A stretch of DNA of 64,000 bases from a virus (Duplodnaviria; Caudoviricetes): IMG/VR virus record IMGVR_UViG_3300028844_006787, one strand, 5' to 3'. The translations under genes and the position numbers were made by a program. Positions within the stretch are counted from its first letter, which is position 1. Each line of letters starts with the position of its first letter. Of the stretch, positions 3,332 through 47,797 are shown one piece after another. Under the pieces are notes generated by a model. It searched no databases, was not told the DNA's origin, and saw nothing but the letters and a program-made list of their open reading frames with translations.

Positions 3332-3748
3332 ATGGATAATAATGATAATTACACAGCACTTGCTTTATTGCTTGAATTGCTTACTACATCACAAAAATAT
3401 GTTGATGCTTATATAGAACGATTTCCAGAACAAACAGAAAACGCACTCAGTTTTTCAGTTGACCCAGGATGTAGTTGTAAAGAAAAAATAATTGAACACT
3501 TCAAAAATAACGCAGAAGCACTTGATGATTTAACGCAAACGTTTCTACAAAACAATCCACTTGAAATTAACTTAAAAGAGTTTCTTCGAGGAATCTCGGT
3601 GAATAATGTAGCAGGACGAATGTTTAAAATTGACAAAACCGAAGAAGCATATAGTGATTTCATAGACAATATGAAAAACAATCGTTGGGCATTTAGATAT
3701 ATGTCAGTTGCGGTAGATGGAGACAAGTATGTGTTTTTCTTTGCGTAA
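3332..3748 (+). CDS. Hypothetical protein
   Basis: 138 aa; TTGACG-N17-TAATAT promoter ends 6 nt before ATG. Confidence 0.75.
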   Translation: MDNNDNYTALALLLELLTTSQKYVDAYIERFPEQTENALSFSVDPGCSCKEKIIEHFKNNAEALDDLTQTFLQNNPLEINLKEFLRGISVNNVAGRMFKIDKTEEAYSDFIDNMKNNRWAFRYMSVAVDGDKYVFFFA

Positions 3749-5189: not shown

Positions 5190-6407
5190 ATGCTACAAAA
5201 GCATTTTAAAAAGTATTACAACATGAAACCATATCTTCTCATTGAAGAGGAGGAGTGGAACGACATCATGCAAACGTATGAGAAAGAAGATGTTGTAGAA
5301 GAACTTGCAAAGGTACTGCACACATATCCTGCTCCGTTACCTGAGATCACCGACAAACAAACTCTTGATAGTTTGAATAAGTTAAAAGGAATAAAGCACA
5401 ATGATGTGCTTATAGAAAAAAAATGGTTTCCTCGCAACGAAAGAAAAAGTAATTATCACTTAAACTACAAAGATTCTCAGTATCTACTAAAAAGAAACAA
5501 TTCTGGTAACAATGCGTCTAATCCGTTTCACGTGGAAACACGTTGGAAAGTAGATTGGACAAGAACACCGAGTGGTTGGAAAACTTGGCAGACGGTGAAA
5601 GGAATCAAAACAATCGTTCGTGCATATTGGACATTAGATAAAGTTCTCAATCGTGTTGATGTTAATACTCTGCGTGTTGCTACAACTCTTCGTAAGTATG
5701 TCGCATCACAATTTAAACCGGCAGTAGCAAAAGCATTCTACGATCACTTTCAAAGCAAAAATGTATTAGACTTCAGTGCAGGATGGGGAGATAGATTAGC
5801 AGGATTTTATACAGGTGAAACCACAGAGCATTATGTTGGAATTGATCCTAATACACTTAACCACCCCAATTACCAAAAGCAAATTCAGTTCTATGAAAAG
5901 TATTCTACCTTTTTTGAACAAGATAGAAAAGCAGACTTAATAGAAAGTCCTGCCGAAGATGTAGATTACTCACAATACGAAAATTACTTTGATACGGTGT
6001 TTACAAGTCCACCATATTTTAATACAGAAAAGTATTCGGAAGATGATACACAATCGTGGGTGCGATATAAAAAGATAGACGATTGGAACGAGAAGTTTCT
6101 TCACACTACACTTGGTAAGATAATTCCGACAATAAAGAAGAATGGCATTCTTGCAATCAATATTGCAGACGTATTTAATGCTCCTATCAACGACTATGTT
6201 GAAATTACAAATCCAATGAACGACTTTATTAAATCACAAGGACTTGAGTATCTTGGTTGCATTGGAATGGAAATGACGAAACGATTTAATTCAGGAGGTG
6301 CGGGTAATGCAAAAAGTGAATATTTTTCAGAAGACCTTAAAGAAATTACCGAAGAAACTAAAGATGTTGCGTTTGCAGAACCGATTTGGATTTGGAAAAA
6401 CTCATAG
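5190..6407 (+). CDS. Orphan DNA amino-methyltransferase (N4-C/N6-A)
   Basis: VLDFSAGWGDRL (SAM-binding motif I) followed by FTSPPYF (motif IV). Confidence 0.9.
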   Translation: MLQKHFKKYYNMKPYLLIEEEEWNDIMQTYEKEDVVEELAKVLHTYPAPLPEITDKQTLDSLNKLKGIKHNDVLIEKKWFPRNERKSNYHLNYKDSQYLLKRNNSGNNASNPFHVETRWKVDWTRTPSGWKTWQTVKGIKTIVRAYWTLDKVLNRVDVNTLRVATTLRKYVASQFKPAVAKAFYDHFQSKNVLDFSAGWGDRLAGFYTGETTEHYVGIDPNTLNHPNYQKQIQFYEKYSTFFEQDRKADLIESPAEDVDYSQYENYFDTVFTSPPYFNTEKYSEDDTQSWVRYKKIDDWNEKFLHTTLGKIIPTIKKNGILAINIADVFNAPINDYVEITNPMNDFIKSQGLEYLGCIGMEMTKRFNSGGAGNAKSEYFSEDLKEITEETKDVAFAEPIWIWKNS

Positions 6408-8691: not shown

Positions 8692-11199
8692 ATGTATCAA
8701 AATATATTCGTAAGTAAAAAAGACAATCTCATTTATCTGTGGGATGATAAACAGGGACTAGTAACATTCAAGAATAAATCCTATGCATACAAAAAATCTC
8801 CAAGTGGGATGTATCGTAGTATGTATGGTGATAGATTAGAAAAGGTAACTCGTTATCGTTACGAAGATACCGATCTATTTGAATCAGATGTACCGATTGA
8901 AACACGTAATTTAATTGACCTTTACGAAGATGACGATGAACCAAGTACAGGTCATTGTGTTTTTAATTTTGATATTGAGGTTAGCATGGAAGGAGAATTA
9001 CCTGACACAGAAAGGGCAAATAATCCTATTACTTCCATTGCGTATCACGATAGTTGTTCAAATAATTACGTGGTTCTTGTTTTAGATAAGGAAGACAAAA
9101 TCACCGACTATTCTAATGATAAAGTTTCGGTTTACTCGTATGATACCGAACGAGCAATGCTTACACACTTTCTTGATTTTTATCAAGAGATTAGTCCGAC
9201 AATATTGACAGGTTGGAACATTGATTATTTTGATGTTCCGTATTTGTATCGTAGACTTGCACGAGTATTAGGACAAGAAGAAGCAAGTCGTTTGAGTCCT
9301 ATTGGACACGCATATTACCATCAGTTCAAGAAACGTATTGTCATCGCAGGTGTTAGTTGCTTGGATTATCTTGCGTTATACAAGAACTTTACATTTAGTG
9401 TTGAACCAAGTTATCGTTTGGATGCGATTGGTCGTAAAGAAGTTGGCATCGGTAAAGTTGAATATGAAGGTAATCTTGATGATTTGTTTTCACAAGACAT
9501 TGAGAAGTTCATTGAATACAATTTGAACGACGTAAAGATTGTTGTTGAGATTGATAAAAAGATGGAACTCATTGAATTGACTCGTAGCATTTGTCACGTT
9601 GGTCATGTTCCTTATGAAGACATTTTATTTTCGTCTCGTTATCTTGAAGGTGCATTGCTTACTTATCTTCGCAGACATAATCTTGTCGCACCAAATAAAG
9701 ACCCAAATGGTCGTGAACGATTCAATGAAATCAAAGGTGACGAGTCCAAGAAGTTTAGTGGTGCGTATGTAGCCGCACCGACACCAGGTAAATACAAGTG
9801 GGTGTTTGACTTGGATTTAACTTCTCTATATCCATCTATTATTATGTCCACAAATATTTCACCCGAAACCAAAGTGGGTGTTGTTGATAAGTGGAGTCCC
9901 GAAGATTTCTGTGATGGCAAACAAACCGAAGTGGGATTTCGTGGAGATACATATTCAGCAGACGAGTTCAAAACATTTTTGAAGGAAAACAATCTTGCTA
10001 TTAGTAGCAACGGTGTGATGTATACCAAAGAAAAAGTAGGACTTATTCCTGCGATTCTTGATCAATGGTTTAATCAACGTGTTGAGTTCAAGAATAAAAT
10101 GAAAGAGTATGGTAACGCAGGTGATGATGCCAAGTATGTATTCTATAAAAGAAGACAACACGTGCAAAAGATTCTTCTTAATTCGTTGTATGGTGTTCTT
10201 GGTTTGCCTATCTTTCGTTTTTACGATGTAGATAATGCAGAAGCAGTTACAACCACAGGTGTGTCGGTGATTAAGTTTAGTCGCAAAATTGCTAATCACT
10301 ATTACAACAAAACACTCGGTGATACAGAAGATCATTGTATTTACATTGATACCGACTCGGTGTTCTTTTCAGCATTGCCAATTGTAGAAAAAACGATGCC
10401 CAATGTTGATGTTGACAATGACGATGAAATGGCAACTGCTATTTTAGAAGTCGCAGATAATGTACAAACTTTTATCAACAAAAGTTATGACGTGATGGCA
10501 AAACGATTCTTTAATATTGAAGAGCATCGTTATGATATTAAACAAGAAGTTATTTCTAAAGCAAGTATTTGGTTGGCAAAGAAACGATATGCACAATGGA
10601 TTATCAACAACAACGGTGTTGCGTGTGATGAATTGGAAGTTAAAGGACTTGATGTTGTTCGTAGTAGTTTTCCAACTAGGTTTCGTAAGTTTATGACGGA
10701 AATCCTCAAAGATATTTTGAAGGATGTACCGAAAGAAGAAATTGATGAGAAGATTGTTACACTCAAAAAACAAGTTAAGAATGAAACCGTTGACGATATT
10801 GCAAAGACTAGTGCTGTTAAGAATATATCCAAGTATGTAAAGATGATGGATAAAGGTGCAGTTATGGGTGAGTGTGCAAAAAGTACACCTGCACACGTTA
10901 AATCAAGTATTATTCATAATCAGTTTCTCAAGAAGTTTAAAATACAAAGTGAACCTATTCGTAATGGTGAGAAAATCAAGTGGATTTATTTGAAGAACAA
11001 TGAACTTGGTTTAGATGCACTTGCGTTTCGTGGTTATGAAGACCCACCAGAACTTATGGAGTTTATTGAGAAGTACGCAGACAAAGATAAATTGTTTGAA
11101 CGAGAACTTGAAGGTAAGTTGCGTGACTTTTATGATGCACTTAGTTGGGACTTTGCAAGTGAGAATCTTGCGAATGCTCAAAAGTTTTTTGCTTTCTAA
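8692..11199 (+). CDS. Family B DNA polymerase with 3'-5' exonuclease (gp43-like)
   Basis: FDIE, GWNIDYFD, YNLND exonuclease motifs; DLTSLYPSII, KILLNSLYG, YIDTDS, KKRY polymerase motifs. Confidence 0.98.
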   Translation: MYQNIFVSKKDNLIYLWDDKQGLVTFKNKSYAYKKSPSGMYRSMYGDRLEKVTRYRYEDTDLFESDVPIETRNLIDLYEDDDEPSTGHCVFNFDIEVSMEGELPDTERANNPITSIAYHDSCSNNYVVLVLDKEDKITDYSNDKVSVYSYDTERAMLTHFLDFYQEISPTILTGWNIDYFDVPYLYRRLARVLGQEEASRLSPIGHAYYHQFKKRIVIAGVSCLDYLALYKNFTFSVEPSYRLDAIGRKEVGIGKVEYEGNLDDLFSQDIEKFIEYNLNDVKIVVEIDKKMELIELTRSICHVGHVPYEDILFSSRYLEGALLTYLRRHNLVAPNKDPNGRERFNEIKGDESKKFSGAYVAAPTPGKYKWVFDLDLTSLYPSIIMSTNISPETKVGVVDKWSPEDFCDGKQTEVGFRGDTYSADEFKTFLKENNLAISSNGVMYTKEKVGLIPAILDQWFNQRVEFKNKMKEYGNAGDDAKYVFYKRRQHVQKILLNSLYGVLGLPIFRFYDVDNAEAVTTTGVSVIKFSRKIANHYYNKTLGDTEDHCIYIDTDSVFFSALPIVEKTMPNVDVDNDDEMATAILEVADNVQTFINKSYDVMAKRFFNIEEHRYDIKQEVISKASIWLAKKRYAQWIINNNGVACDELEVKGLDVVRSSFPTRFRKFMTEILKDILKDVPKEEIDEKIVTLKKQVKNETVDDIAKTSAVKNISKYVKMMDKGAVMGECAKSTPAHVKSSIIHNQFLKKFKIQSEPIRNGEKIKWIYLKNNELGLDALAFRGYEDPPELMEFIEKYADKDKLFERELEGKLRDFYDALSWDFASENLANAQKFFAF

Positions 11200-12095
11200 T
11201 GGCAAACTATAATCAAATACTTCCAATCAGAAAAGATTGTAGAATTGATGAACAATTCGGTTGGTTGCCTTTGAGTGTATTAGAACCAAGTCGTGATCAT
11301 CGTGAACAGTGGCCGGAAGCATATCTTGATGATGGAATTCGTGAAACAAAACGAAGTAAAGATGCAGAGAATCTTCCTGGCCTTAGGTTCAGTGAGTTTC
11401 ACGCGGGATTAGCAGAGCAAATACTTCGTTATTGGAGTATGCGTGGAAGTGTAATTGTAGACCCATTTGCGGGTCGTGCTACACGTGCTATGGTTGCGAG
11501 TAAACTTGGCCGCAACTATCAAGGTTATGAAGTATCACAACAAACATATACACGATGTATGAAGCATTTTGAAAAGTTCAAGGTATCTCCTAAACTTTTT
11601 AATGGAGATGGAACAGAAATGCTTCACACACAAAATGAAACTGCCGATCTGGTGTTTACGTGCCCCCCGTATCACAATCTTGAAAAGTATGAAGCCGCAA
11701 AAAATCAATTAAGTGAATGTGAAACATACGAAGACTTTATGGTTCAAATTCAAAAGTGTGGTAAAAATATAAATCGTGTTTTGAAACCAGGAGCATTTTG
11801 TGTATGGGTTGTTTCAGATTGGAGAGATATGACCGGTAGTGGTCTTCGTAGTTTTCATTCGGACTTGATTACTTCATTTGTAAACGAAGGAATGATTCAC
11901 CACGATACAATCATTATGAAGAATCTTAGTCCATTTGCTTATGTTCAATGTGCAAAAGTAGCAAGCAAAAGATACACAAGTAAAATACACGAATATATTA
12001 TGGTTTTCCGCAAAAAAGGTGAATACGAAATACCTGAGTATTGTGAGCAAGACGAACTTCGTGTTAACTCAAATAAGTTTTTTAGTTATGAATAA
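11199..12095 (+). CDS. Orphan DNA methyltransferase
   Basis: VDPFAGRATR (motif I) then FTCPPYHNLE (motif IV); TAATG coupling to polymerase stop. Confidence 0.9.
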   Translation: MANYNQILPIRKDCRIDEQFGWLPLSVLEPSRDHREQWPEAYLDDGIRETKRSKDAENLPGLRFSEFHAGLAEQILRYWSMRGSVIVDPFAGRATRAMVASKLGRNYQGYEVSQQTYTRCMKHFEKFKVSPKLFNGDGTEMLHTQNETADLVFTCPPYHNLEKYEAAKNQLSECETYEDFMVQIQKCGKNINRVLKPGAFCVWVVSDWRDMTGSGLRSFHSDLITSFVNEGMIHHDTIIMKNLSPFAYVQCAKVASKRYTSKIHEYIMVFRKKGEYEIPEYCEQDELRVNSNKFFSYE

Positions 12096-13383
12096 AATAA
12101 TCAATGGAGATAGTTTAAAAGTTCTCAAGAAACTTGAGGACGAATCGGTAGACCTAGTGTGTACAGACCCACCTTATGGTTATTCGTTTATGAATCGTGA
12201 TTGGGACAAAGCAGTTCCTGCATTAGAAATTTGGCAAGAGTGTCTACGAGTTTTGAAACCAGGAGGATTCTGCTTTGTTATGTCAGCACCTCGTTCCGAT
12301 GTACAAAGTCGTATGATGGTTCGTTTAGAAGATGCAGGATTTAATATTGGATTCACTCCGATTTATTGGACATACGCAACTGGTTTCCCAAAAGCAACAA
12401 ATATAGGAAAACTTGCCGACAAAAAAAATTATGATGAAGCAAAATTACTTGAAGGTTCTTATGTAGGTTTTCAACCGAAACCTGCGGTGGAAGTTGTACT
12501 TGTCGCAATGAAACCAATCACAGAAAAAACTACTCTTGAACAAGCAATGAAAAATGGTAAAGGAGTTACTTGGTTAGACGATTGTAGAATTCCCTATGTA
12601 AACGAAAATGATATTATTCCTCAACTTAGAGATAATAAACGAATTGTAAATAGTCGTGAAATGTATGGTGGCACAAGTTATCATAAATCAAAAACCCAAG
12701 CAATTATCGGAGGAAACACAGACGGAAGATTCGCAGCCAATTTAATTGTACAAGATGATGTACTTAATGACGGAGTAAAACGAAGCAAAGGAAAACACAC
12801 AGATAGTGGAAGTGCATCTGGTGGTATTTGGCAAGAAAGCACAGGCAAACCCGCCGGAAGAACTTACGGAGACGAAGGATCATTCTCACGATTCTACGAT
12901 TTAGATGCTTGGTGGAAATCACAAATACATAAATTGCCCGAAAGTGTTCAAAAGACTTTTCCTTTTATGATTGTTGCAAAAGCAAGCAAAGCAGAAAAAA
13001 ACAAAGGTCTTGAACATCTTCCTAAAAAGAAAAGTTCTTCAATGCCAGGAAGAAGAAATGCAGAAGATATGAGCAATAGCAAAATCGACCACGATGTTAC
13101 TGGTAGATTTGTCACGGAAAAACAAAATGTTCATCCAACCGTTAAACCGATTGAACTTATGAGTTATTTAATAACACTTGGAAGTCGTGAAAATGATGTT
13201 GTTGTTGATCCGTTTGTCGGAAGTGGAACAACTTGTATTGCGGCTAAAATGCTTGATAGAAAATATATCGGAATTGAAAAAGAAAAGGATTATGCTATTA
13301 TTGCTAAAACACGAGTAAATGATGCGGAAAGTCCTACACAAGCAAGTGATAAAAATAAAAGCAAAGAATTCTTTGCATTTTGA
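12088..13383 (+). CDS. Orphan DNA methyltransferase, beta class (N6_N4_Mtase)
   Basis: Likely start MNKIINGDSL at 12088; TDPPY, HPTVKP, DPFVGSGTT. Confidence 0.93.
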   Translation: MNKIINGDSLKVLKKLEDESVDLVCTDPPYGYSFMNRDWDKAVPALEIWQECLRVLKPGGFCFVMSAPRSDVQSRMMVRLEDAGFNIGFTPIYWTYATGFPKATNIGKLADKKNYDEAKLLEGSYVGFQPKPAVEVVLVAMKPITEKTTLEQAMKNGKGVTWLDDCRIPYVNENDIIPQLRDNKRIVNSREMYGGTSYHKSKTQAIIGGNTDGRFAANLIVQDDVLNDGVKRSKGKHTDSGSASGGIWQESTGKPAGRTYGDEGSFSRFYDLDAWWKSQIHKLPESVQKTFPFMIVAKASKAEKNKGLEHLPKKKSSSMPGRRNAEDMSNSKIDHDVTGRFVTEKQNVHPTVKPIELMSYLITLGSRENDVVVDPFVGSGTTCIAAKMLDRKYIGIEKEKDYAIIAKTRVNDAESPTQASDKNKSKEFFAF

Positions 13384-13423
13384 CTTGTATATACATATAT
13401 AAATATATAAAATATAAAACATC

Positions 13424-14542
13424 ATGGAACAGAACTATACAAAATTAGCAGACCTTCTTGTAAGGCATAGTGTATCTTTAAAGAAAGGTGAAAAGGTTTT
13501 AATAGATAATACCGAAGTGCCAGAGAACATGACGATTGCACTTGTTCGTGCAGTTCGTGAATATGGAGGAATACCTTTCGTACAAACATCACAGAGTCGT
13601 ATAGGTCGTGAGGTGATGCTTCATGCAACCAAAGAGCAGATGGAAATCTTTATGAAGTTTGCTATGCCTAAGATTCAAGAAATGGATGCGTATATTGCTA
13701 TTGCAGGTTCTCATAATATATACGAAACAAGTGATGTTGATCCAGATATTAAAACGATGATGTCTAAGATCACCAAACCATATCTTGATTATCGTGTAAA
13801 TGAAACCAAGTGGTGTATTTTAAGATGGCCGCATCCTGCTATGGCACAACAAGCAAATATGAGTACAGAAGCATTTGAGAACTTTTACTTTGATGTTTGT
13901 ACATTTGATTATGCTAAGTTTAATCCAGGTATGAGCAATCTGCAAAAGAGAATGCAGAATGCAGATAAAGTTCATATTAAAGGAGATGATACAGATTTGC
14001 GTTTCTCTATAAAAGGAATCGGTGCAGTTGCGTGTGGTGGTACACATAATATACCAGACGGAGAAGTATTTAGTTGTCCTATTAAAGATAGTGTTGAAGG
14101 ACACATTCAGTTTAATGCTCCAACAATTTATCGTGGAATTGACTTTGACGGAATTCGGTTGGAATTCAAAAAAGGGAAGATTATTGATGCTACTGCAAAT
14201 AGTGATGCAAGCACCGAGTCATTAAATGAAATTCTTGATAGTGACGATGGAGCAAGATACATTGGTGAATTTGCTATTGGATTCAATCCATATGTTACAC
14301 ATCCAATGCGTGATATTTTATTTGACGAAAAAATCGGTGGAAGTTTTCATTTTACACCCGGTCAATGCTATGATGATGCAAGCAACGGAAATGATTCACA
14401 AGTACATTGGGATATGGTAAAGATTCAGAGACCAGATTATGGAGGTGGTGAAATTTACTTTGACGATGAACTTATTCGTAAGGATGGTGAGTTTGTTGTT
14501 AGTGACTTGATACCACTTAATCCAAGTGAGTTATTAAAATAA
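13424..14542 (+). CDS. Aminopeptidase, M29 (AmpS/PepS thermophilic metalloprotease) family
   Basis: [39 protein letters not shown]. Confidence 0.93.
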
Positions 14543-14597
14543 GTGTTGACTAATTCGTTCTCAAAATATATTATATATACATATATAAATAAATAAA

Positions 14598-14993
14598 ATG
14601 TTATTTGGAGACTTATTTGAATTAGAAGATGAACTGGAACGAGATAAACATCGTTACGGTAAAGATAACTTTAATTCAACACTATATAAAGTAGACGATA
14701 CTAAAAGTGACATTAAGTTTTATATGATTTACCAAGCATTTCTTGAATGTCATCTCGTTATGAAAAACAATAATGTGTGTGAACACAAGTTGTATGATTT
14801 AAAGAGTATGAAACCAACTAATAGAATTTTAGAAATTACAGAAAACGGTAACACAGAGTTTTTTAATATAGAAAGTTTTATAGATGCCTCGGTAAATAAA
14901 AACTCATTTAGAATAAACAATACATCAGGAAAAGAAGTAAATCTCATTCCATGTCAACTTAGGAGCATGATTACCGATGGACGTGTACAATAA
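14598..14993 (+). CDS. Hypothetical protein
   Basis: 131 aa behind TTGACT promoter at ~14546. Confidence 0.65.
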   Translation: MLFGDLFELEDELERDKHRYGKDNFNSTLYKVDDTKSDIKFYMIYQAFLECHLVMKNNNVCEHKLYDLKSMKPTNRILEITENGNTEFFNIESFIDASVNKNSFRINNTSGKEVNLIPCQLRSMITDGRVQ

Positions 14994-15237
14994 AACCAAA
15001 TCAACACCTCACATTGAAGTAATTGATATAAGTAAAAACAATGAAACCAACGAAACTGCATTGCATTTTGAAGTTAATGAAGCATTTCTAGAACTAGTTA
15101 AAAAAGATACAAAAACCGAAGAAATAACACAAGAACAACTAAGTGAGTATGTAACAAAACTAGTATCTAATTGTGCAGATTTTAAGAATGGATATAGTTA
15201 CGATAAAATTACTGAATTACCAAATGATTATATTTAA
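14977..15237 (+). CDS. Hypothetical protein
   Basis: 86 aa, overlapping neighbours in operon. Confidence 0.65.
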   Translation: MDVYNKTKSTPHIEVIDISKNNETNETALHFEVNEAFLELVKKDTKTEEITQEQLSEYVTKLVSNCADFKNGYSYDKITELPNDYI

Positions 15238-15488
15238 TGAAATATAAAACTCATAAAAAATTAAAAAAGTTATTAGAGTCAAAACTAGAATCAGAGACTT
15301 TAGTTCTTGAAAAACTAATAACTGATGATACAAAAAATTTAGATGATCTTGAAGATTCCATCGAAGAAATTTGTAAATTAAATTCAAAACTGAAATTCCT
15401 CGACTCGTTATTCAGAACAGAATCGTATGATGAAGATAATAATCCTGTTCTACGTGACCAAGAAGGTAACATTCAGTGGAAATTTTAA
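15237..15488 (+). CDS. Hypothetical coiled-coil protein
   Basis: 83 aa, TAATG coupling. Confidence 0.65.
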   Translation: MKYKTHKKLKKLLESKLESETLVLEKLITDDTKNLDDLEDSIEEICKLNSKLKFLDSLFRTESYDEDNNPVLRDQEGNIQWKF

Positions 15489-15535: not shown

Positions 15536-16261
15536 ATGAAAAAAGATAAAGTACTACAATTCATTTCTCGTTACAATCTTAATGGTAACGTAGAATCAGT
15601 TAAGTGGGAAACCAACGGAGACAACGTTTGCGAAACCACCTTCATTACAGATGACAAGAGTGTTCTGGGTAAAGTATCCGCAAAGGATTTTAATCTCACA
15701 GAAGGTGAAGTAGGTGTTTACGATACTGCAAAGTTAAAGCAATTATTGTCAGTCGTGGGTGACGAAATTAATGTGGAAGTCGTTGAAAAGAATGAAAAGA
15801 ATGTTAGTGTTAGTGTATCAGACGAAAACACTAGTGTTAATTTCATGCTTGCAGACTTAGCAGTTATTCCAAATGTACCCGCTTTGAAGGATCTTCCAGA
15901 TTTTGATTTGCAAATTCCATTTAGCAATGATTTCGCAAAAAAGTTCGTTCGTTCAGCAAGTGCATTAAGTGATGTTGATACATTTACCATCGTTCCATCA
16001 AAGGATGGAATTCAGTTGGTTATTGGATACTCAACCATCAATAGCAATCGCATTGCTCTTAATGCGATAAACGAAGGTTCAGGAACCATCTCTGACCCTA
16101 TTAGTTTTTCCGCAAAGTATTTTAAGGAAATTCTTAATGCTAATAGTGACTCAGAAAAGAGTGTACTTAATGTAAGTTCCAAAGGAATTGCAAGCATTGA
16201 GTTTGAAGTCGGTGACTTCCGTAGCAGTTATTACTTGGTTGAAATTCAAACAACCGATTAA
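15536..16261 (+). CDS. DNA polymerase sliding clamp (gp45/PCNA-like)
   Basis: 241 aa acidic, beta-rich; GVYDTAKLKQLL and FSAKYFKEIL..YYLV patterns; directly upstream of clamp loader. Confidence 0.85.
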   Translation: MKKDKVLQFISRYNLNGNVESVKWETNGDNVCETTFITDDKSVLGKVSAKDFNLTEGEVGVYDTAKLKQLLSVVGDEINVEVVEKNEKNVSVSVSDENTSVNFMLADLAVIPNVPALKDLPDFDLQIPFSNDFAKKFVRSASALSDVDTFTIVPSKDGIQLVIGYSTINSNRIALNAINEGSGTISDPISFSAKYFKEILNANSDSEKSVLNVSSKGIASIEFEVGDFRSSYYLVEIQTTD

Positions 16262-17217
16262 TGAACTTTTTAGAAGAAGCAACACAGTCTCCAGTTGAAT
16301 CGGAAAATAGTCTTTGGGTTGAGAAATATCGACCCAAAGACTTGTCTGATTATATCGGAAACGAACCATTAAAGAAACGAGCATCTTCTTGGATTGAGTC
16401 TAAGGACATTCCTCATTTGCTTTTGTATGGAAAAGCAGGTACAGGTAAAACAACTTTAGGTAAGTTGATTACCAAACGAATTCCTTGTGACTATTTGTAT
16501 ATCAATGCAAGTGATGAAAACAATGTAGATACTGTTCGTACCAAGATTAAGTCGTTCGCAAGTAGTATGGGATTTGCTGATCTAAAAATTGTTCTACTCG
16601 ATGAGTGTGACTTTCTTACAGGTAATGCTCAGGCTGCTTTAAGAAATCTTATGGAGCAGTTCAGTGCCACTACTCGTTTTATTCTTACTTGTAATTACCA
16701 CGAAAAAATCATTGAACCGATTGTTAGTCGTTGTCAGACTTTCAATATTGTTCCTCCTAATCGTAAAGATGTTGCAGTTCATCTTGCTAAGATTCTTGCA
16801 AAGCAAGGCATCAAAGCACAACCTGATGATATTGCATTGATTGTAAACAAAGGATATCCTGATATTCGTAAGGTAATCAACAACGCACAACAAAATAGTA
16901 TCAATGGTACTCTTGAGATTATCAAAGAAGACCTTATTGAAGGTGACTATAAGTTAAAGTTGTTGGACATTCTAAAGAATGCAAGTAAAGACAAAAAGAA
17001 TGCTTGGTTAACTGCTCGTCAACTTATTGCAAATGAAAAAATAAATGACTTCACGGACGTTTACAAGTTTTTATTTGATAATGTAGATGAGTATGCTCCT
17101 GGTAAAAGTGCAAACATTGTTATTATGCTTGATCAACAAACTTACCACGATAGTTTAGTTGTTGATAAAGAAATTACATTTGCATCAACCATAGCACAAA
17201 TCGTTCAAACACTATGA
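16261..17217 (+). CDS. Clamp loader AAA+ subunit (gp44/RFC-like)
   Basis: LWVEKYRP, GKAGTGKTT, INASDE, LLDECD, SRC motifs. Confidence 0.96.
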   Translation: MNFLEEATQSPVESENSLWVEKYRPKDLSDYIGNEPLKKRASSWIESKDIPHLLLYGKAGTGKTTLGKLITKRIPCDYLYINASDENNVDTVRTKIKSFASSMGFADLKIVLLDECDFLTGNAQAALRNLMEQFSATTRFILTCNYHEKIIEPIVSRCQTFNIVPPNRKDVAVHLAKILAKQGIKAQPDDIALIVNKGYPDIRKVINNAQQNSINGTLEIIKEDLIEGDYKLKLLDILKNASKDKKNAWLTARQLIANEKINDFTDVYKFLFDNVDEYAPGKSANIVIMLDQQTYHDSLVVDKEITFASTIAQIVQTL

Positions 17218-18129: not shown

Positions 18130-19122
18130 TTATATTTTATTATTTTTTATTCGAGAGTTTGCAATCTCACAAAACTCTTTATTTATTTCAAATCCAATAA
18201 AATTTCTATTGGTATTTATAGAAGCAAGTGAGGTACTTCCACTTCCTATATACGGATCAAGCACAATACCACCATCAGGACATACAAGAGGAATTATTCT
18301 TTCTATAAGTGAACTTGGATATATAGCAGAGTGTTTGGTATTTTTATGATTTGCAACTGCATGACTTAATACATCAGTTTTCATTTTTTGTCCGTGCATA
18401 CGAATAATAGTGAATCCTTGATTTTTTAATTGATTAGTTCTTCCTCCCTGCTGACCACCATACGCAGGAGCATGAACACCACGAATCTTTATTCTAAAGT
18501 CGTATAAATCACCACTACGATATTCATTGATAGTTTTTAATATCTGAGATTTAGCAAATCGTTTTTCGGACTCGGATAGATCAGAGTGTTTCAACATTTC
18601 AATGTATTTAAGACCTTTTGTTTGTGATTTGTTTTTATTTAAATCAACATTAATTTTTTCAAATGAATCTTTGTCATAGTAGTAAGATTTATTTAATGTA
18701 AAATGAAAAAAAGGTTCGGTTGAATTAACAAGTCTAGTTTTACATTGATGTGGAGTCGGATTTGTTTTATGCCATTGTATAACATTAACAAGATATAAAT
18801 TTAAATTAGTTTGAAGATGTTCCGCAAATTTATATGGAATTAATTGCAATCCTCCCTTTGGTAAATACTTGTCTCCTAAATTGTATATTATACTACCACT
18901 TGGTTTTACAACTCTTACAAGTTCTTTAACAACTTTACTTAATGATTCTATATACTCAGAAATAGTTTCTTCTTCACCTACACTACTTCCATAATCTCTT
19001 TGTTGAAAATAAGGAGGTGATGTAATAACACAATCAACATAATCAGTTGGAAGTTGTTTGCATAATTCATAACAATCTCCGTTTACTATTTGATTTAAAT
19101 AAGTTTGTTTTGCAACAGACAT
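18130..19122 (-). CDS. Orphan DNA methyltransferase, beta class (probable N4-cytosine)
   Basis: ITSPPYF; HSAIYP; LDPYIGSGST. Confidence 0.93.
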   Translation of the reverse strand: MSVAKQTYLNQIVNGDCYELCKQLPTDYVDCVITSPPYFQQRDYGSSVGEEETISEYIESLSKVVKELVRVVKPSGSIIYNLGDKYLPKGGLQLIPYKFAEHLQTNLNLYLVNVIQWHKTNPTPHQCKTRLVNSTEPFFHFTLNKSYYYDKDSFEKINVDLNKNKSQTKGLKYIEMLKHSDLSESEKRFAKSQILKTINEYRSGDLYDFRIKIRGVHAPAYGGQQGGRTNQLKNQGFTIIRMHGQKMKTDVLSHAVANHKNTKHSAIYPSSLIERIIPLVCPDGGIVLDPYIGSGSTSLASINTNRNFIGFEINKEFCEIANSRIKNNKI

Positions 19123-31524: not shown

Positions 31525-31827
31525 TTACTTTTTCTTGGGACCTTTAGACCTAATTGGCACAGACTTATTAGATTGAGAATAACTTGTTTTATTTCTAAGT
31601 CTATATATAATACGTGCTTTACTTGTATCGTATTTGCTGATTTCAAGTAAAACTTTATCACCCACCGTTAATTTAATAAAATGTTGTTTTAGTTTTCCCG
31701 CAAGGGAGCAGAGTAATATCATACTCTGCTCACCTTGGGTAATTTCAACATCAAACATCGTTCCAGGAAGAAGTTTTTTTACAACTCCTTCAATCTCGAA
31801 TATATCAGGATTATTTTTTCGTGACAT
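31525..31827 (-). CDS. infA: Translation initiation factor IF-1 with basic C-terminal extension
   Basis: EIEGVVKKLLPGTMFDV...LAGKLKQHFIKLTVGDKVLLEISKYDTSKARIIYR. Confidence 0.92.
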   Translation of the reverse strand: MSRKNNPDIFEIEGVVKKLLPGTMFDVEITQGEQSMILLCSLAGKLKQHFIKLTVGDKVLLEISKYDTSKARIIYRLRNKTSYSQSNKSVPIRSKGPKKK

Positions 31828-31835
31828 ACTAAGAA

Positions 31836-32480
31836 TTAGGTAAGAATTTCGTCAACCAAACCATACTTCAAGCAAGTTTTGGCATCCCACCACAAATCAT
31901 GTTTGAGAATCTCATCCATTTTTACTTTGGGAATCTTGGTTCTTTCTTCGTATATTTCTTTTATACGTTTCATTAAAGCATCAGAGTTCTTCATATCATC
32001 TTGAAGTTCCTGATATTTGCCCCAATGTTGCGAACTAAGTTGATGAACAAGCATATAAGAATTCTCACCAATAAATCGTTGATCACCACATACACTCATA
32101 ATGGTACCTGCACTAGCCGCACATCCATCTATATATGTATATATAGGAGTCTTGCTTTGCTTCATATAATCAATGCTTCCAAAAGCAGCGAATACACTAC
32201 CTCCATAACTATTAATTTTTAAATGAATTGGAATCGGAACTTTAAGACCAAGTTTCATTGAAATCATTTGCATTTCACGATCTAATCTTGAAATTTCCTT
32301 ATTAAGAGTAAAGTTTTCTTTCATAGATACTCCGGCATAAAAGTAAATGATATTATCATCACCTTCTACCGTATCCATAGAACTATCTTTTGCGTTACTC
32401 TTTGGTTGTTTTACCACCTTCTTTTTAGTGGGTTTATTTTTTGGAGGAGTGTCTCCTGAATTTATTTCCCAATTATACAT
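31836..32480 (-). CDS. ClpP-like (S14) protease
   Basis: INSYGGSV, GCAASAGT (Ser), MLVHQ (His), KHDLWW (Asp), YGLVDEI. Confidence 0.92.
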   Translation of the reverse strand: MYNWEINSGDTPPKNKPTKKKVVKQPKSNAKDSSMDTVEGDDNIIYFYAGVSMKENFTLNKEISRLDREMQMISMKLGLKVPIPIHLKINSYGGSVFAAFGSIDYMKQSKTPIYTYIDGCAASAGTIMSVCGDQRFIGENSYMLVHQLSSQHWGKYQELQDDMKNSDALMKRIKEIYEERTKIPKVKMDEILKHDLWWDAKTCLKYGLVDEILT

Positions 32481-32498
32481 AATTTTATTATTTAATGA

Positions 32499-32705
32499 TT
32501 AACGAATCTTTTTAGGTTTATCGGTACGAACGATAGAAATCTTGGAAGACGGATCGTGTCGTTTGCAAAGATTAATCCAATATTGGGATTCAGATTTTGC
32601 ATCACTTTCATTAAGAAAGTTTTTATCCGAGGTTCTACGATTATCACGTGTAACAACAAAATATGTTTTGGATGTCGTGGTGTGAGTGTCTCTATATGTT
32701 TTCAT
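32499..32705 (-). CDS. Hypothetical protein
   Basis: 68 aa ORF. Confidence 0.65.
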   Translation of the reverse strand: MKTYRDTHTTTSKTYFVVTRDNRRTSDKNFLNESDAKSESQYWINLCKRHDPSSKISIVRTDKPKKIR

Positions 32706-34848: not shown

Positions 34849-37119
34849 TTACTTTTTTGAGTTATTTACTAATTCAATGTAATTGATTAATTCTTGCATA
34901 GGTTCTTTGCTCCAAGATTCGTCGGAAGAGGTGGTTAACGCATGAGACATATATGTTACCATAGGATAGTGATTACGAAGCATTTTTAGCACATCACAGA
35001 GGGTTTTAGAGGCAGTTTGATTAAAGTATTTACTTATGTTATTATCATCTTCAACCCAATTAGTAAATCTTAATAGTGTATTGTAATAGTCTCTATCTTG
35101 TTCATCGAGTGTATTATTAGTTTTTTCGTTGAATAAAACAATTTTGTTTATTTTATTTAATTCTTTTACTAAATTATGATGTTTGCTATTTGAAAGTAAC
35201 ACTACGAGACGTTTAAATAAACGTTTGTTGATTAAGTTACGAGTAAATTTATATGAACCATCGGATTGATGATGCTCGTATTGTTTAGATTTAGAAATCT
35301 TGTATAATCTACTATTTTCATCTTTGAACGAGTATTTAATAAATTCAGTTATATAATCAAATACATTTACAAAGTTTCTTTTGTTTTTAAGTTTCTTGGT
35401 GAATCCGTATTTGATTCCATAAACAACTACTTCGTTTTTTGTTTTACCAAGAACCGATGCTAACAATGTATGAATGTTATTATTAGAATACTCAATATCA
35501 TTGTGTACGATTTTCCAATTCTTGATTGGTACATAATAAGTTCTTTGATTATTATCTAAGTCAAGTAATTCAGCATTATCCCAATTGTTTGCTAATCTCC
35601 AATAACTTCCACCAGTATATTGAAATGCTTCTATTTTATTGTTATTAGAATTTTTGGTACGAGTGGATGTTGGTTTAACGAGAGAAGATGTTTTATGAAG
35701 TTTAAGTGGAAATCCAATTAGTTTTAAATATGCTTTTTCTCGTTTTGAAAAAGATTTAAGTAATACTACAACTTTATTTTCATTGTTGCGGACATAATGA
35801 TTAATACGACCAATATGACCATTCGGTAAATCATTTACAAAGAATTCTACATTGTTGTCAAAAGGAATTACAGAATCTCTTAAACTTCTACGATTAACTC
35901 TATCGGAGTTTGAGGTGTATCTACGAGGAAGACCCAACCAAAAGACTTCATGTTCAATTGACAATGCATACGCATTTTTATCGTTTGTTCCGTGAAAGTT
36001 TTCAAGTAAAGAGTTACCTTTGTAGTTCAATTCAGATTTCCATTTAAAATTAGAAATAACACCATTGCTATGATTGTAAGTGTTTGTATCATCCGAATAT
36101 TCATCGTTCTTGGCAATCATCGCATTGAATAATATACGAGCATCCCAATAAGATTTACATTTATTGATTCGGTCAGTCATAATATCCTTAATTTCATTGG
36201 AAACACGTTCAATGAAATTAACAATATATTCCTTTCCTTCGTTGTTCCATCCAATTTCTTCACGACTTGCAGTAATATCAAGATTACCGATTGGAACACG
36301 AAATACTAAGTTGGACATTAAATTTCTAATTTCGTTTTGCTTTTCCCACGATGGATGTCTACGACGAACAAGTTCATCAATATCATAGTAACTAAGAGGA
36401 TATGTTACATTACCCATTAAAATGACCGAGGAACTATCTCTTTTTTGTTTTTCAACATAATACCAATCTTTACCCTCAAGAATTTTCGTGGGGACATTCA
36501 GAGTATGCTTCGTTGAACCAATGGTAACATTTGGAGTAACATCAAAGTAAGTTAGAATTTCATCAGCAGATTGTTGCATTAAACGATAATGCTCAGAATC
36601 AGTAGGAGTAAACTTGATTTCGGTGCCAGATGCTTCTTTGGTATTTTCTTCGGATACAATAGAAAAATTTGGGACATCTGCATCAAGATAATTAATAACC
36701 GTAGTTTTCTTGCCATTCTTAATGGAAGTAACCGTAAAGGCATCACTAAGAGTAAAAGGAGTTTTACTACCAAGACCCATACAGCCTACAAAGTCGTTGC
36801 TATGAGTTTTATTGCTTTCAAAGTAAGTAGTATAAGTAGTTTCTAATTCTTGCTTGCTCATACCAATGCCATAGTCCCTAATAGAGAACCAAGGCTCTGC
36901 GACAGAGGGCAGATGTACATCAAATGGAGTATGAGTATTACCTTTGGCTACATGAGCATCATATGCGTTAGTAGATAACTCTCGTATAGGAGCAGCTATT
37001 TTATCACTATATAAACCATCACTTAATATCCTAAATGCTTTTGCTGATGCTTTAATTGAATACTGAGTAGTAGCATTAAGATTGTTACTTACTACATTAG
37101 GAGCTGTTTTAAGTTGCAT
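34849..37119 (-). CDS. rIIA-like protein (N-terminal GHKL/HATPase domain)
   Basis: AFRILSDGLYSDKIAAPIRELSTNAYDAH, IRDYGIGM, GCMGLGSK, LDITASRE. Confidence 0.92.
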   Translation of the reverse strand: MQLKTAPNVVSNNLNATTQYSIKASAKAFRILSDGLYSDKIAAPIRELSTNAYDAHVAKGNTHTPFDVHLPSVAEPWFSIRDYGIGMSKQELETTYTTYFESNKTHSNDFVGCMGLGSKTPFTLSDAFTVTSIKNGKKTTVINYLDADVPNFSIVSEENTKEASGTEIKFTPTDSEHYRLMQQSADEILTYFDVTPNVTIGSTKHTLNVPTKILEGKDWYYVEKQKRDSSSVILMGNVTYPLSYYDIDELVRRRHPSWEKQNEIRNLMSNLVFRVPIGNLDITASREEIGWNNEGKEYIVNFIERVSNEIKDIMTDRINKCKSYWDARILFNAMIAKNDEYSDDTNTYNHSNGVISNFKWKSELNYKGNSLLENFHGTNDKNAYALSIEHEVFWLGLPRRYTSNSDRVNRRSLRDSVIPFDNNVEFFVNDLPNGHIGRINHYVRNNENKVVVLLKSFSKREKAYLKLIGFPLKLHKTSSLVKPTSTRTKNSNNNKIEAFQYTGGSYWRLANNWDNAELLDLDNNQRTYYVPIKNWKIVHNDIEYSNNNIHTLLASVLGKTKNEVVVYGIKYGFTKKLKNKRNFVNVFDYITEFIKYSFKDENSRLYKISKSKQYEHHQSDGSYKFTRNLINKRLFKRLVVLLSNSKHHNLVKELNKINKIVLFNEKTNNTLDEQDRDYYNTLLRFTNWVEDDNNISKYFNQTASKTLCDVLKMLRNHYPMVTYMSHALTTSSDESWSKEPMQELINYIELVNNSKK

Positions 37120-38321: not shown

Positions 38322-38729
38322 TTATTTGTTATATTTACTTAAAAAATTATAGAATATAATAGTTCCTTGAGTTTTTAACCAATTTTCATATTTATGAAGA
38401 TCCATTGTTGTTCGTTTCTTAGTTGATAAATGATAATCATTATACGAAACCAAAAGATCCTCTGGAAATATCGAAGTATTGAATCTGTTATCTATAACAC
38501 TCATAGATATAGCAGTTTCATTAGTAAATTCCCACATTAAAGTATTTCTAAATGATTCTATGCCAAAAATTACCATATCTAGTTCTTCTTTAGTACACAA
38601 AAACAAATAATCGTAATTGTATCCATTGTTATCGGGATCAATTACATTATGAATATAGAATATAGATTCTTTTTTAATTTCTTCTATATCTTTTGATTCA
38701 AAATAAGATTTTCCATTAAGTTTTATCAT
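38322..38729 (-). CDS. Hypothetical protein
   Basis: 135 aa ORF. Confidence 0.65.
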   Translation of the reverse strand: MIKLNGKSYFESKDIEEIKKESIFYIHNVIDPDNNGYNYDYLFLCTKEELDMVIFGIESFRNTLMWEFTNETAISMSVIDNRFNTSIFPEDLLVSYNDYHLSTKKRTTMDLHKYENWLKTQGTIIFYNFLSKYNK

Positions 38730-38961
38730 TTTCTAGTCGTGTTAGTATGCCTTTAGATATTAAATCATAGAATTTATAGTCTGAAAGTGCTACTCTGCGT
38801 AGTTTCTGAGTATTTTTATCTTTAATTTTAAGATTAACTATGCGTTTTCCTTCAATTTCGCATATATCTATCGCATGATACACCAAATAAACGTATTGTT
38901 CTTCTACTGGGTTATAGGTAATCATTACATAATCTTGTTTTAAGGATACACTTCTCTCCAT
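38716..38961 (-). CDS. Hypothetical protein
   Basis: 81 aa ORF overlapping next gene. Confidence 0.65.
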   Translation of the reverse strand: MERSVSLKQDYVMITYNPVEEQYVYLVYHAIDICEIEGKRIVNLKIKDKNTQKLRRVALSDYKFYDLISKGILTRLENDKT

Positions 38962-39181
38962 GTATATACATATTGTTTACTTTTACCTTTTAACCAATAG
39001 TAATTTCCTCATAAAAAAATCTGTCTCCAGGATTTTTTGGATTTTTCGAGAAAAAAAACTTTTATCTACCCACCAAAAATCGATATAAGTAAGATCTGGA
39101 AGAAAAAATGGTCATCCACACAAGAGTAGAGGTGGCCGACCTAAAAATCGGGTTTTGCTTTCCTGGTTACAAAAAAAAGTT

Positions 39182-39266
39182 ATTAGGTATACTAATAGTA
39201 TATTACGAGCAACACATACCAGAGGTAAGAAATGCAACGATATATTTTGCTATTAGTATACCTAAT
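39182..39266. repeat. Perfect 17-bp inverted repeat
   Basis: ATTAGGTATACTAATAG (39182-39198) / CTATTAGTATACCTAAT (39250-39266). Confidence 0.85.
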
Positions 39267-39322
39267 GTGAATATAACTACATTAATTAGGACTTCTATGA
39301 CTTCTTTTGCTTTATTATCCAC
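39203..39322 (-). CDS. Small membrane peptide (39 aa, GTG start)
   Basis: MDNKAKEVIEVLINVVIFTLGILIAKYIVAFLTSGMCCS. Confidence 0.4.
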   Translation of the reverse strand: MDNKAKEVIEVLINVVIFTLGILIAKYIVAFLTSGMCCS

Positions 39323-39434
39323 TGCATAACAAGGAAATTGCGATTACACTTGCTACTATGGCAGCTTTTTTGCCTATTTTAATGCTTTTTTTCTTCGTTT
39401 CTTCTGTTATTATAGGCATTTTTATTCTTTTCAT
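39315..39434 (-). CDS. Small peptide (39 aa) with hydrophobic C-terminus
   Basis: TATTTATA 3 nt before ATG; MKRIKMPII...AAIVASVIAISLLCSG. Confidence 0.5.
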   Translation of the reverse strand: MKRIKMPIITEETKKKSIKIGKKAAIVASVIAISLLCSG

Positions 39435-39476
39435 ACCTATAAATATTATAAAAAGGGTATTTTTATAATAATATGC

Positions 39477-39893
39477 TTAATTATTTTTATAAAATAATGT
39501 AAAAAATGCGGTTAATCCAAGTAATACTATAAATCCTGAGAAACTATTAAGATTTTCAGTTAAAACATTGATATTTTTAACTACACTATAAAACGGTGTG
39601 TTTTCTCCGAATAGTGCTGATACTACTAAACTTAGTCCTATTACTCCTACTAATAGTATAGTAATGCTTTTTATGAATATCATAAGTGTAGATATACTAT
39701 TACTTATACTGGTATTACTATTATCGGTAGTATTATCTTTATTTGGGATTTCCGCAGGAATTTCGTAGTTGTCCCAATGCTCTTTGGGATCATAGTTTGC
39801 TAGGTCCTGCTGTTTCAGTTCTTCTGGTGTGAATTCCATAGTTTCAGGGTTTTCCTCGGAATTTCTGTTTTTTGATTTTTTTTTCTTGGGCAT
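39477..39893 (-). CDS. Membrane protein
   Basis: Hydrophilic N-half plus two TM segments. Confidence 0.7.
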   Translation of the reverse strand: MPKKKKSKNRNSEENPETMEFTPEELKQQDLANYDPKEHWDNYEIPAEIPNKDNTTDNSNTSISNSISTLMIFIKSITILLVGVIGLSLVVSALFGENTPFYSVVKNINVLTENLNSFSGFIVLLGLTAFFTLFYKNN

Positions 39894-40027
39894 AATATTT
39901 TTTGTAAGTGATTGATAATTCAGGACTTATGTAAATAATTTTTTTTATCTACTAAAAAATACCTCCCATATTAATAATGCGAATAATAGTGTGGTAAGAA
40001 GCATGACAAATAAATCAACCATGTATA

Positions 40028-40366
40028 TTAACGATTAGTAAAAGTTACAAGGACCTTTTTATTGTTTGAATCTTCAAACATCATATCACGAACTCCTATT
40101 TCAATATCATATCCACTATGCTCTAGTGTATATCCGGCCTTTTTCATGCCATTGGTAATAGCATCATTCACACAGGGTTTATCAAGAAGTTCTTTGGAAA
40201 CCATTTCCATAACTGCTTCGTTCTCAAGAATCGGAAGTTGGATTTGTAAAAACTTTTTGATTCCGTTGTAAATTTCGTTGCTTAACATATCCCGAGCAGA
40301 AGAACTTTCAAGATTCAATTGAAGTCCACTTACGTTATTTAATACATCATCTATAATTTTCTTCAT
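40028..40366 (-). CDS. Hypothetical protein
   Basis: 112 aa behind TTGACT promoter (~40398-40403). Confidence 0.7.
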   Translation of the reverse strand: MKKIIDDVLNNVSGLQLNLESSSARDMLSNEIYNGIKKFLQIQLPILENEAVMEMVSKELLDKPCVNDAITNGMKKAGYTLEHSGYDIEIGVRDMMFEDSNNKKVLVTFTNR

Positions 40367-40875
40367 ATGATAAAACTATATTATAATTTTGCGGAAAAGT
40401 CAACTCATAAGTTTTTTATACCGGTAACATAAAGATATACTGCTAATGCTATTACCGCAAGATATACTAAGATGATCATATAATCATAAATACATTCTAT
40501 AAAATATTATATGTCGATAAAAATCCATTATATAAACACATTGCATTATATACGTTTAATGTATCAACATATACACATATCATGATACCAGTAAATCAGG
40601 TCAGGTTTTATATCTTCTAATATGCGTTTCAGAACGCATTTTCTTGAAAATAAAAATACATCATTGAAATATCGTTGTGCCCATGTGCTCTATTCTTTTT
40701 TTATATTTTTTAGCACTATTTGTATCGCACCGTTAGTATTCTTTTATATGTGTGATATGTGGGTTCTTTTTGATGTATATTTTCCCAAGAAAAATGAAGT
40801 CTATTTGGGGGTATTCCTGTTCCCCTCCCACCATCCCTTGATGGTACAAAATTTCGCCCGAAAAGTCAAATGCAA

Positions 40876-41707
40876 ATAATGATAATAGTAAGGCTAGTAG
40901 TATAGGTAATAGTAATATACGCATACATAGTAATAGTAATGATCAATCATCCTTAATTTCCTCATTTTCCCCAGCACCTAGAAAAAATAATTTATAGGTC
41001 TTTTGTAAGTTGTTGCTATTCAGATATTTGCTAGCTAATATTAATTGCATTTTATTTTTTCTAGGTGCTAGGCAAAATAATCAGGTCGTTATATTGGGTG
41101 TTATGGGTATTATCATTAGTAATAGTAATAGATAATGATGCGGTGCGAAAGTGCTTGACAGAGCTAGTGTTTTTTGCTATGGGTAGCTATGGTAAAAAGT
41201 GGTGGTCGTCACGAGAACCCCCTTTATTAAAATGAATGCTTGACTATATCTGGATCCAGCAAACTACTAATAATATAATTATATACGTAAATAAATGTAT
41301 TTGCGTATCAAAGGCTATACCTTGACACCTAGAGTGCCTTTGACACCCATATAAAGGGGTATACAAGGATTTAAAAGGTAATTTGGTGGACATAGCTATA
41401 TTACCCTACTATACATGAAGTCTATATTTGTCTATTCTCTATTACTATTACTATATGGGTATTATCAGGTAACATCAACTATTATCAACTATCATATATT
41501 ATCATCAGCAATATCAATTAAGGTAGATTGGTGGGTGGGGACGACTAGCCTGATGTTATACGCATTTAGCATTTATAGACGGGTTAGACTACGTTCTTAC
41601 TATTTCATTTATATTACTATTACCTATACTATTATGTTTATTACTATTATGCGTTATGCGTATATTATCTACTTTATTACTATTACCTATATTACTATTA
41701 TCATTAT
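40876..41707. repeat. Nested inverted repeats and TAATAGTAAT iteron-like repeats (candidate origin or packaging/terminus region)
   Basis: 22-bp IR 40898-40919/41610-41631; 16-bp IR 40876-40891/41692-41707; 13-bp IR 40913-40925/41655-41667; 18-bp IR 40973-40990/41052-41069. Confidence 0.8.
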
Positions 41708-41864
41708 ACATTATTTCCGCAAAAATTTTGGGTATTTTTTCAGGCCATATCTAGTCCCCTTTTATGCGTAATTCGGTGGGCAAAAAAAACTAGCTATAAT
41801 CTGATGAAATGAAGAAGAAATCAAATGGTTGCGAAAGCAAGCATTTATTTCTTTTGAATGAAAT

Positions 41865-42497
41865 CTAAGCATCAAAAGCATAATCAAAATTCTTTAAATC
41901 CTTTGAGTATTTTGTGGTAACAATATGATATAATTCACTATTGTAATAGCATCTATAATCATGGTGGAAATTACTATTTTTGCATTTAAGTTGACTACGA
42001 GCAACACCAATATTATCACATATATTATTAAAATCATCCTGAAGATTTTCGTATCTACCGACATAATCAACACAACATTTATCACCGTCATATACATAAT
42101 CTGACATACTTCTTATATGCTGACGAATACTACATTTTCGTTGTGTATCTTCATCCCAAGAACACTTAACAAAATCATCAAATGTGATTTCCGCAAAATC
42201 TTTATGTAAGTTTTTCCTCCAAAAAAATTCCGAAACTAGTCGGTCATATGGATTTCTAACAAAAGTAAAAGTATAGTATTTTTCACGGTAATTTGTGGGA
42301 ATATACTCATACTCAATATACTCATTTATGGTAAAATGTTGACGATATAATTTATGAACTTTATCCCATCCAATAGGAAAAATTTTTCGCCCATTGGATA
42401 GTGAATCGCATATACTACTCGTTGCGGTTTTAGGAATTTGAATGTAAATAAAATTGTTAGCGGAATCAATCATTAAAAAATTTTTCTCGATTTTCAA
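41865..42497 (-). CDS. Sulfotransferase family 2 protein
   Basis: IPKTATSS (5'-PSB), FVRNPYDRLVS (3'-PB), VGRYENL; true start may be MIDSANN (~42473). Confidence 0.9.
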   Translation of the reverse strand: MKIEKNFLMIDSANNFIYIQIPKTATSSICDSLSNGRKIFPIGWDKVHKLYRQHFTINEYIEYEYIPTNYREKYYTFTFVRNPYDRLVSEFFWRKNLHKDFAEITFDDFVKCSWDEDTQRKCSIRQHIRSMSDYVYDGDKCCVDYVGRYENLQDDFNNICDNIGVARSQLKCKNSNFHHDYRCYYNSELYHIVTTKYSKDLKNFDYAFDA

Positions 42498-44840: not shown

Positions 44841-44883
44841 GATACTATAATATTACTCAATGAATAAATTGGCAAGTTTATTG

Positions 44884-47091: not shown

Positions 47092-47142
47092 AACTAATAT
47101 AAATATTAAATATATTATATTTATAACTTAGGAGATGTAATA

Positions 47143-47790: not shown

Positions 47791-47797
47791 TTTTTTT

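Follow-up and report, generated by a model that had tools for sequence, protein, structure and literature searches.

Why does a phage DNA polymerase share its short aromatic C-terminal peptide with two DNA methyltransferases whose genes lie right behind its own? The question is posed by a 64,000-nucleotide stretch of viral DNA (IMG/VR record IMGVR_UViG_3300028844_006787; "the window" below means this whole stretch), which holds a T4-like replication module on its + strand. An earlier note, made from the sequence, had read the common C-terminal tail as a means of recruiting the methyltransferases to the replisome through the sliding clamp. That reading is supported by the analysis given here: with a probability of roughly 0.7 and with modelling in its favour, the tails would belong with the clamp-docking C-terminal peptides of T4 gp43, gp55 and gp33, carried here by DNA-modifying enzymes, and we infer physical binding to the clamp and replication-coupled methylation. 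The genes and tails concerned are as follows:

8692..11199, + strand: PolB, family B DNA polymerase of the T4/RB69 gp43 type, 835 residues (PF00136 2e-40, PF03104 5e-23)
11173-11196, + strand: PolB tail NAQKFFAF, presumed clamp-binding
11199..12095, + strand: MTase1, N6/N4 DNA methyltransferase, 298 residues (PF01555 6e-23)
12066-12092, + strand: C-terminal add-on of MTase1, ending NSNKFFSYE
12088..13383, + strand: MTase2, N6/N4 DNA methyltransferase, 431 residues, ATG at 12088 (PF01555 5e-32)
13309-13380, + strand: polar linker and tail of MTase2, ending KSKEFFAF
13424-14542: M29 aminopeptidase, directly behind MTase2
15536..16261, + strand: sliding clamp of the PCNA/gp45 fold, 241 residues, presumed docking platform
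16261..17217, + strand: AAA+ clamp-loader subunit, gp44/RFC-like (PF00004 6e-16, PF13177 1e-11, Gp44_lid 9e-4)

PolB, MTase1 and MTase2 are consecutive + strand genes that overlap in sequence order, the PolB/MTase1 junction reading TAATG and the MTase2 ATG falling within the final codons of MTase1, and as the earlier note had said, their products end in a common peptide (...NLANAQKFFAF, ...RVNSNKFFSYE and ...NKSKEFFAF, each followed by the stop). The nearest solved structure to PolB is that of RB69 gp43 (1CLQ, E 8e-81). Both methyltransferases are assigned to the N6/N4 enzymes by the (D/S/T)PPY catalytic motif, the FxGxG motif for S-adenosylmethionine (SAM) and PF01555 matches of 82 bits (MTase1) and 112 bits (MTase2), above the curated cut-off of 26.7. 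The order of the motifs is reversed between them (DPFAGR then TCPPY in MTase1, DPPY then DPFVGSG in MTase2), which places the two in different motif-order classes, again as the note had it. In MTase1 the Pfam domain stops at residue 286 of 298 and in MTase2 at residue 407 of 431, short of the tail in both. Both proteins thus have the layout of T4-type clamp clients, a short aromatic C-terminal peptide after a variable linker outside the fold, and in both the motif matches the C terminus of the cognate polymerase (KFFAF against KFFSYE and EFFAF).

Such a resemblance could be a coincidence of composition, since an AT-rich proteome with much Lys, Phe and Asn would have many Phe-rich C termini. 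Phenylalanine and lysine make up 5% and 9.5% of the residues in the window, and seven of its open reading frames (ORFs), two of them unrelated, have FF within their last six residues. However, when the 100 longest non-overlapping ORFs of the window are taken as background, the strict motif [KE]FF[AS][FY] is found at three C termini and at no internal position, and the looser FF.[FYW], at 5.3e-4 per internal position, leads one to expect about 0.16 C-terminal occurrences where three are observed. The motif is therefore well above the background rate that the earlier note had named as a possible refutation. With all loci pooled, the strict motif occurs at 121 C termini against 0.9 expected, although the copies are related and the comparison is hence not a probability. 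No further protein in the window ends in such a tail. The two ORFs that the note had listed as background, ending EKFFND (42466-43161, glycosyltransferase-like, PF05704) and SFFKK (44884-47091), are both real, but neither has the final aromatic residue, and a search of four related genomes gave no orthologue of either; they were treated as background rather than as tail bearers.

Both of these ORFs, the first a Caps_synth-type glycosyltransferase-like gene and the second of 735 residues, lie in a low-GC island (window 40000-48000, 26-29% GC), and neither has an orthologue even in G001, a 170-kb viral contig (84% complete) with a 96% identical polymerase. Two other candidates were set aside: an 83-residue ORF (15237-15488, ending ..IQWKF), which has no homologue in the relatives, and a 138-residue ORF (3332-3748, ending ..FFFA), whose end looks like a conserved hydrophobic strand end and not like a linker plus tail.

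Conservation was followed in 80 related IMG/VR viral contigs with 52-96% polymerase identity, and in G001 together with three other contigs. The polymerase tail, A[EQ][KQ]FFxF, is kept in 80/80 of the related contigs. Megablast of the region against isolated phages gave no match; the closest isolate is Microcystis phage Mel-JY01 (polymerase identity 47%), whose polymerase ends SKFFNFK. Nearly all of the 120 closest homologues of MTase1 (50-96% identity) have a di-aromatic end (KFFxF, KFF, NFW, EWW, NWW or KFW) and the MTase2 tail is kept in seven orthologues, so that the motif is conserved in orthologues, where the earlier note would have counted its absence as a refutation. Cultured phages hold no close homologue of MTase1, the best being in Bacillus phage G (32%). 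Among distant MTase1 cluster representatives, such a tail is missing from 134 of 149, most of which end at or just past the last catalytic strand, HEYILVFKK. Judged by these sequence comparisons, the tail is an add-on to the methyltransferase catalytic fold, in agreement with the note's placing of it beyond that fold. Conservation and motif counts together already contradict coincidence, which we regard as extremely improbable.

A metagenomic protein of 429 residues (P0015) joins a C-terminal piece of the polymerase (PF00136) to MTase1 (95% identical over 66% of the query); a frameshift, or an artefact of gene calling, at the TAATG overlap probably accounts for the fusion.

The note had also held that the match lies at the protein level, and this is borne out by the tail DNA, in which any two of the three genes have just 14-15 of 24 bases in common. 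Across the loci compared, 26 codon strings encode polymerase tails and 18 encode the tails on modifying enzymes. Freely varying codons under a constant polymerase tail show that the peptide is what is selected, and the many codon strings for the same tails rule out a DNA- or RNA-level signal as well as recent duplication. These numbers bear equally on the idea that the tails are functionless insertion scars, left when mobile methyltransferase cassettes landed at the polymerase gene's 3' end and copied its last codons or recombined with them. The gene order would suit such an origin. In this clade about 4.3 kb (11199-15488: the two methyltransferases, the M29 aminopeptidase and, between the latter and the clamp, three small ORFs) separates polymerase from clamp, and in most relatives (compared with L010-L081) and in Mel-JY01, which has a clamp homologue (30% identical) directly behind its polymerase, the clamp gene lies within about 70 bases of the polymerase; accessory genes seem to accumulate preferentially at this junction. 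Scars are nevertheless very unlikely, given how few tail bases agree and how widely the codons diverge under a constant peptide. The tail moreover persists in orthologues down to 50% identity, and tailed methyltransferases are also found upstream of the polymerase or elsewhere (L036, L038), as is a tailed endonuclease I 90 kb off.

That endonuclease belongs to a wider set, for in the related contigs the tail recurs on at least six unrelated families. It is present in at least five distinct N6/N4 methyltransferase groups (KKFFKWK, KEFFDY, KHEFF, KYKFFV, NKFW), in two D12/Dam methyltransferases (KKFFEYK, SKFFNI), in another SAM methyltransferase (NKFFSFD), in a Mom-family protein (NKFFDI; many further Mom homologues end NFW), in a GNAT (EKFFQF) and in a T7-type endonuclease I (PF05367, 3e-55; ENFFDYSK; G004 157777-158211, equal to L121:17777-18211), the last about 90 kb away from a polymerase that ends QFFGF. 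A 496-residue protein encoded directly after the clamp (L038:7967-9457, L076:13919-15409 and G004 67636-69126, equal to L117:7636-9126) ends ..NKFF, has no Pfam or PHROG match and may be a further clamp client. Tail bearers with an assignable function almost all act on DNA, and this convergence of unrelated families is the strongest evidence for the docking-tail reading. Two further lineages, reached through MTase1 homologues, likewise pair a tailed polymerase with tailed methyltransferases: in L134 the polymerase ends ..ERFF and the methyltransferases ..EWW and ..DFF, and in L141, a 293-kb phage, the corresponding ends are ..KYFDF, ..KFFE and ..KFFEIE.

Several other C termini were noticed on the way. 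Weak relatives of the 496-residue protein (about 373 residues), encoded just upstream of the polymerase in other contigs, are tail-less. Mom-family paralogues are paired side by side some 4-7 kb upstream of the polymerase (L022, L024, L027, L030, L046, L054 and others), and in these pairs the paralogue of about 266 residues always ends NFW or KYW and the one of about 255 residues has no aromatic tail. Two MTase1 homologues end differently, P0115 (L140:6703-7680) in ..EQGDLFTEIEVF (EQGDLF..) and P0103 in ..EQNDLFA; these ends, two cases alone, resemble the bacterial beta-clamp motif QL[SD]LF, and P0115 sits on an 8-kb contig fragment that encodes a primase-helicase, with no clamp gene in view. 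Homologues of the single-strand-binding protein gp32 (L134:6912-7676 and L136:4621-5364) end ..FNELFDK and ..FDDLFSK, an acidic-aromatic tail that differs from the FF tail and that both lineages conserve. A conserved protein of about 260-315 residues ends G-[VD]-x-F-F-[WY]-P.. in four genomes and does not have the look of a linker plus tail:

G001 31737-32681, - strand: G-[VD]-x-F-F-[WY]-P protein
Mel-JY01 35112-36008: G-[VD]-x-F-F-[WY]-P protein
G004 38707-39585: G-[VD]-x-F-F-[WY]-P protein
G002 168361-169152, - strand: G-[VD]-x-F-F-[WY]-P protein

What would such a tail bind? The polymerase is of the gp43 type and the gp43 C terminus is a known clamp epitope (PMC2988020), which supports docking on the clamp. 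A clamp and a clamp loader are indeed encoded downstream, as the earlier note had stated, and the phage thus has both components that clients of the T4 type require. The clamp (15536-16261) has no Pfam match; its predicted structure (predicted local distance difference test score, pLDDT, 91) resembles PCNA chains in Foldseek (TM 0.70-0.75), and the top solved match to its profile is T4 gp45, at a marginal E of 0.047. Its assignment to the gp45/PCNA clamps rests on this two-domain PCNA fold and on its adjoining the loader and polymerase.

The clamp trimer, from a 33-row alignment, was modelled in complex with the C-terminal 40 residues of MTase2, in three runs and with three controls; the note had proposed a prediction of this kind as a check, and the outcome was in the note's favour. 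The runs scored 0.71, 0.73 and 0.70, and the best of the three controls scored 0.00. In the calibration of the score, 58 of 80 solved complexes come up to this mark, as do 2 of 110 mismatched pairs. At least 59% of the contacts are common to the runs, with partner pLDDT of at least 47. Residues 416-431 of MTase2 are modelled in the canonical clamp pocket, with the linker at low confidence (partner pLDDT 48-56), and F428 and F429 are predicted to contact clamp residues 37-44, the interdomain loop 112-120, residues 217-218 and the C-terminal strand 233-238. Invariant or nearly invariant positions account for 14 of the 19 modelled contact residues against 62 of the 222 other clamp residues (p 1e-4). 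Docking of the tail in the clamp pocket is thereby supported by modelling, the pass of the model being a sign of likeness and not of binding.

The tail might instead be recognised by some other protein that the three enzymes have in common, such as a different hub of the replisome, or serve as a sorting or degradation tag by which the timing or stability of these early enzymes is set. It is common and conserved, yet its partner is one that comes from a model; an M29 aminopeptidase lies right behind MTase2, a relative encodes ClpP, and RNase H is without the tail. We consider this explanation unlikely, as the polymerase is of the gp43 type with its known clamp epitope, the model puts the tail in a conserved canonical pocket while the controls score zero, and the bearers are almost all DNA-acting enzymes, which a degron does not explain.

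Clamp docking remains the preferred reading, and a number of observations weigh against it. The calibration of the complex score is only roughly valid here because a trimer and an alignment of our own were used, and the pass may partly be memory because solved PCNA-peptide and gp45-peptide complexes exist. The canonical PCNA-interacting peptide (PIP) box, Q-x-x-[LIMV]-x-x-[FY]-[FY], is absent: the FF pair is there, and at positions -7 and -4 from it neither the three tails nor the lineage consensus TAEKFFSF have Q and an aliphatic residue. All lineages examined have FF-like tails, so that the comparison of polymerase and methyltransferase tails covers this one class. Tail-less methyltransferases also exist, namely the two listed below, one more in G001 and three of the four in Mel-JY01:

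18130..19122, - strand: third N6/N4 DNA methyltransferase (PF01555 2e-46), tail-less, ending ...IKNNKI; an internal contrast
5190..6407, + strand: methyltransferase-like protein (partial PF01555 2e-5), ending without an added tail at the last catalytic strand, ..EPIWIWKNS

The orthologues of the first in L006 and L009 are likewise tail-less, and the G001 orthologue of the second has the same kind of end. In Mel-JY01 a methyltransferase of 434 residues does have ..AKFFNM close to its C terminus. The tail also has a narrow distribution. A proteome-wide scan of G001 finds it on just the same three proteins and on no other ORF of that contig, which speaks against a general mark of clamp clients, and none of the RNase H homologues checked has it, RNase H being among the proteins that the earlier note had suggested inspecting. 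With RNase H and all other G001 ORFs tail-less, replisome proteins in this phage do not carry the tail as a rule. Homologues of gp55, gp33 and ligase were not found by PHROGs searches of candidates near the recombination genes, Mel-JY01 being mostly annotated "hypothetical".

Comparison with known systems places the tails closest to those of T4, where gp43, gp55 and gp33 bind gp45 through C-terminal epitopes that sit on variable linkers and can be exchanged for one another (PMC2988020). In both cases the chain ends, after a variable linker, in a short peptide of hydrophobic or aromatic character, which is common to the polymerase and other clients, and docks, here by prediction, on the phage's own trimeric clamp. 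Unlike in T4/RB69, the clients are methyltransferases (in relatives also Dam, Mom, GNAT and endonuclease I) instead of transcription factors, and the motif is K-F-F-x-F instead of the acidic LDFL type. As in the PIP box of PCNA clients, the FF pair is predicted to sit in a hydrophobic pocket beneath the interdomain connector loop; unlike in the PIP box, the canonical positions lack a conserved Q or aliphatic residue, and there is an extra aromatic residue two positions past FF. T4 DNA ligase is reported to interact with gp45 in a mode described as unique (PMC6212786), and it offers a parallel from a T4-type phage, a DNA enzyme besides the polymerase that works with the clamp, as is predicted here. 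The closest functional likeness is with DNMT1, in which a short motif tethers a methyltransferase to PCNA and newly replicated DNA is methylated (PMC9690074). DNMT1, however, is a C5-cytosine enzyme with an internal, N-terminal PIP box, while the viral enzymes are of the N6/N4 type with a C-terminal tail, their role presumably being anti-restriction and not epigenetic inheritance, and their origin independent. Clamp clients of the T4 type are thus known, and what appears new from the sequences is the presence of DNA-modifying enzymes among them. Like the earlier note, which knew of no such arrangement in phages, a full-text literature search of incomplete coverage found no report of clamp-tailed phage methyltransferases.

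The proposed mechanism is as follows. The C-terminal [KE]-F-F-x-[FY] would be a docking peptide for the phage's own PCNA-fold sliding clamp, which the gp43-type polymerase would use as T4/RB69 gp43 does. Both methyltransferases behind the polymerase would each have gained the peptide on a flexible linker after the catalytic fold, the polymerase epitope being copied in function onto DNA-modifying enzymes. Clamps at forks, and those left on new DNA, would offer three client pockets, and because a loaded clamp has three, the free pockets could recruit methyltransferases to nascent, unmethylated DNA. N6-adenine or N4-cytosine methylation would then take place right behind the fork, ahead of cutting by host restriction, and it is from this picture that we infer both a coupling of methylation to replication and an anti-restriction benefit.

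More tentatively, and at somewhat less than even odds, there could be a "tail code" in T4-like and jumbo phages, by which enzymes that act on fresh DNA gain the peptide of the polymerase and ride the clamp. It may span unrelated methyltransferases, Mom, acetyltransferase-like modifiers and junction-resolving nucleases, with modification coupled to the fork as an anti-restriction measure. If this is true, the tail would predict a DNA-directed function for proteins such as the 496-residue ..NKFF protein beside the clamp, and a simple sequence rule, a tail the same as that of the polymerase, would find DNA-acting enzymes among unannotated phage genes. The clamp clients of phages would extend beyond polymerase, late transcription factors and ligase, and the tails, if they dock, would match DNMT1 on PCNA in a virus, with an evolutionary origin of their own. 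Docking would also explain how post-replicative methylation leaves no restriction-open window on nascent phage DNA.

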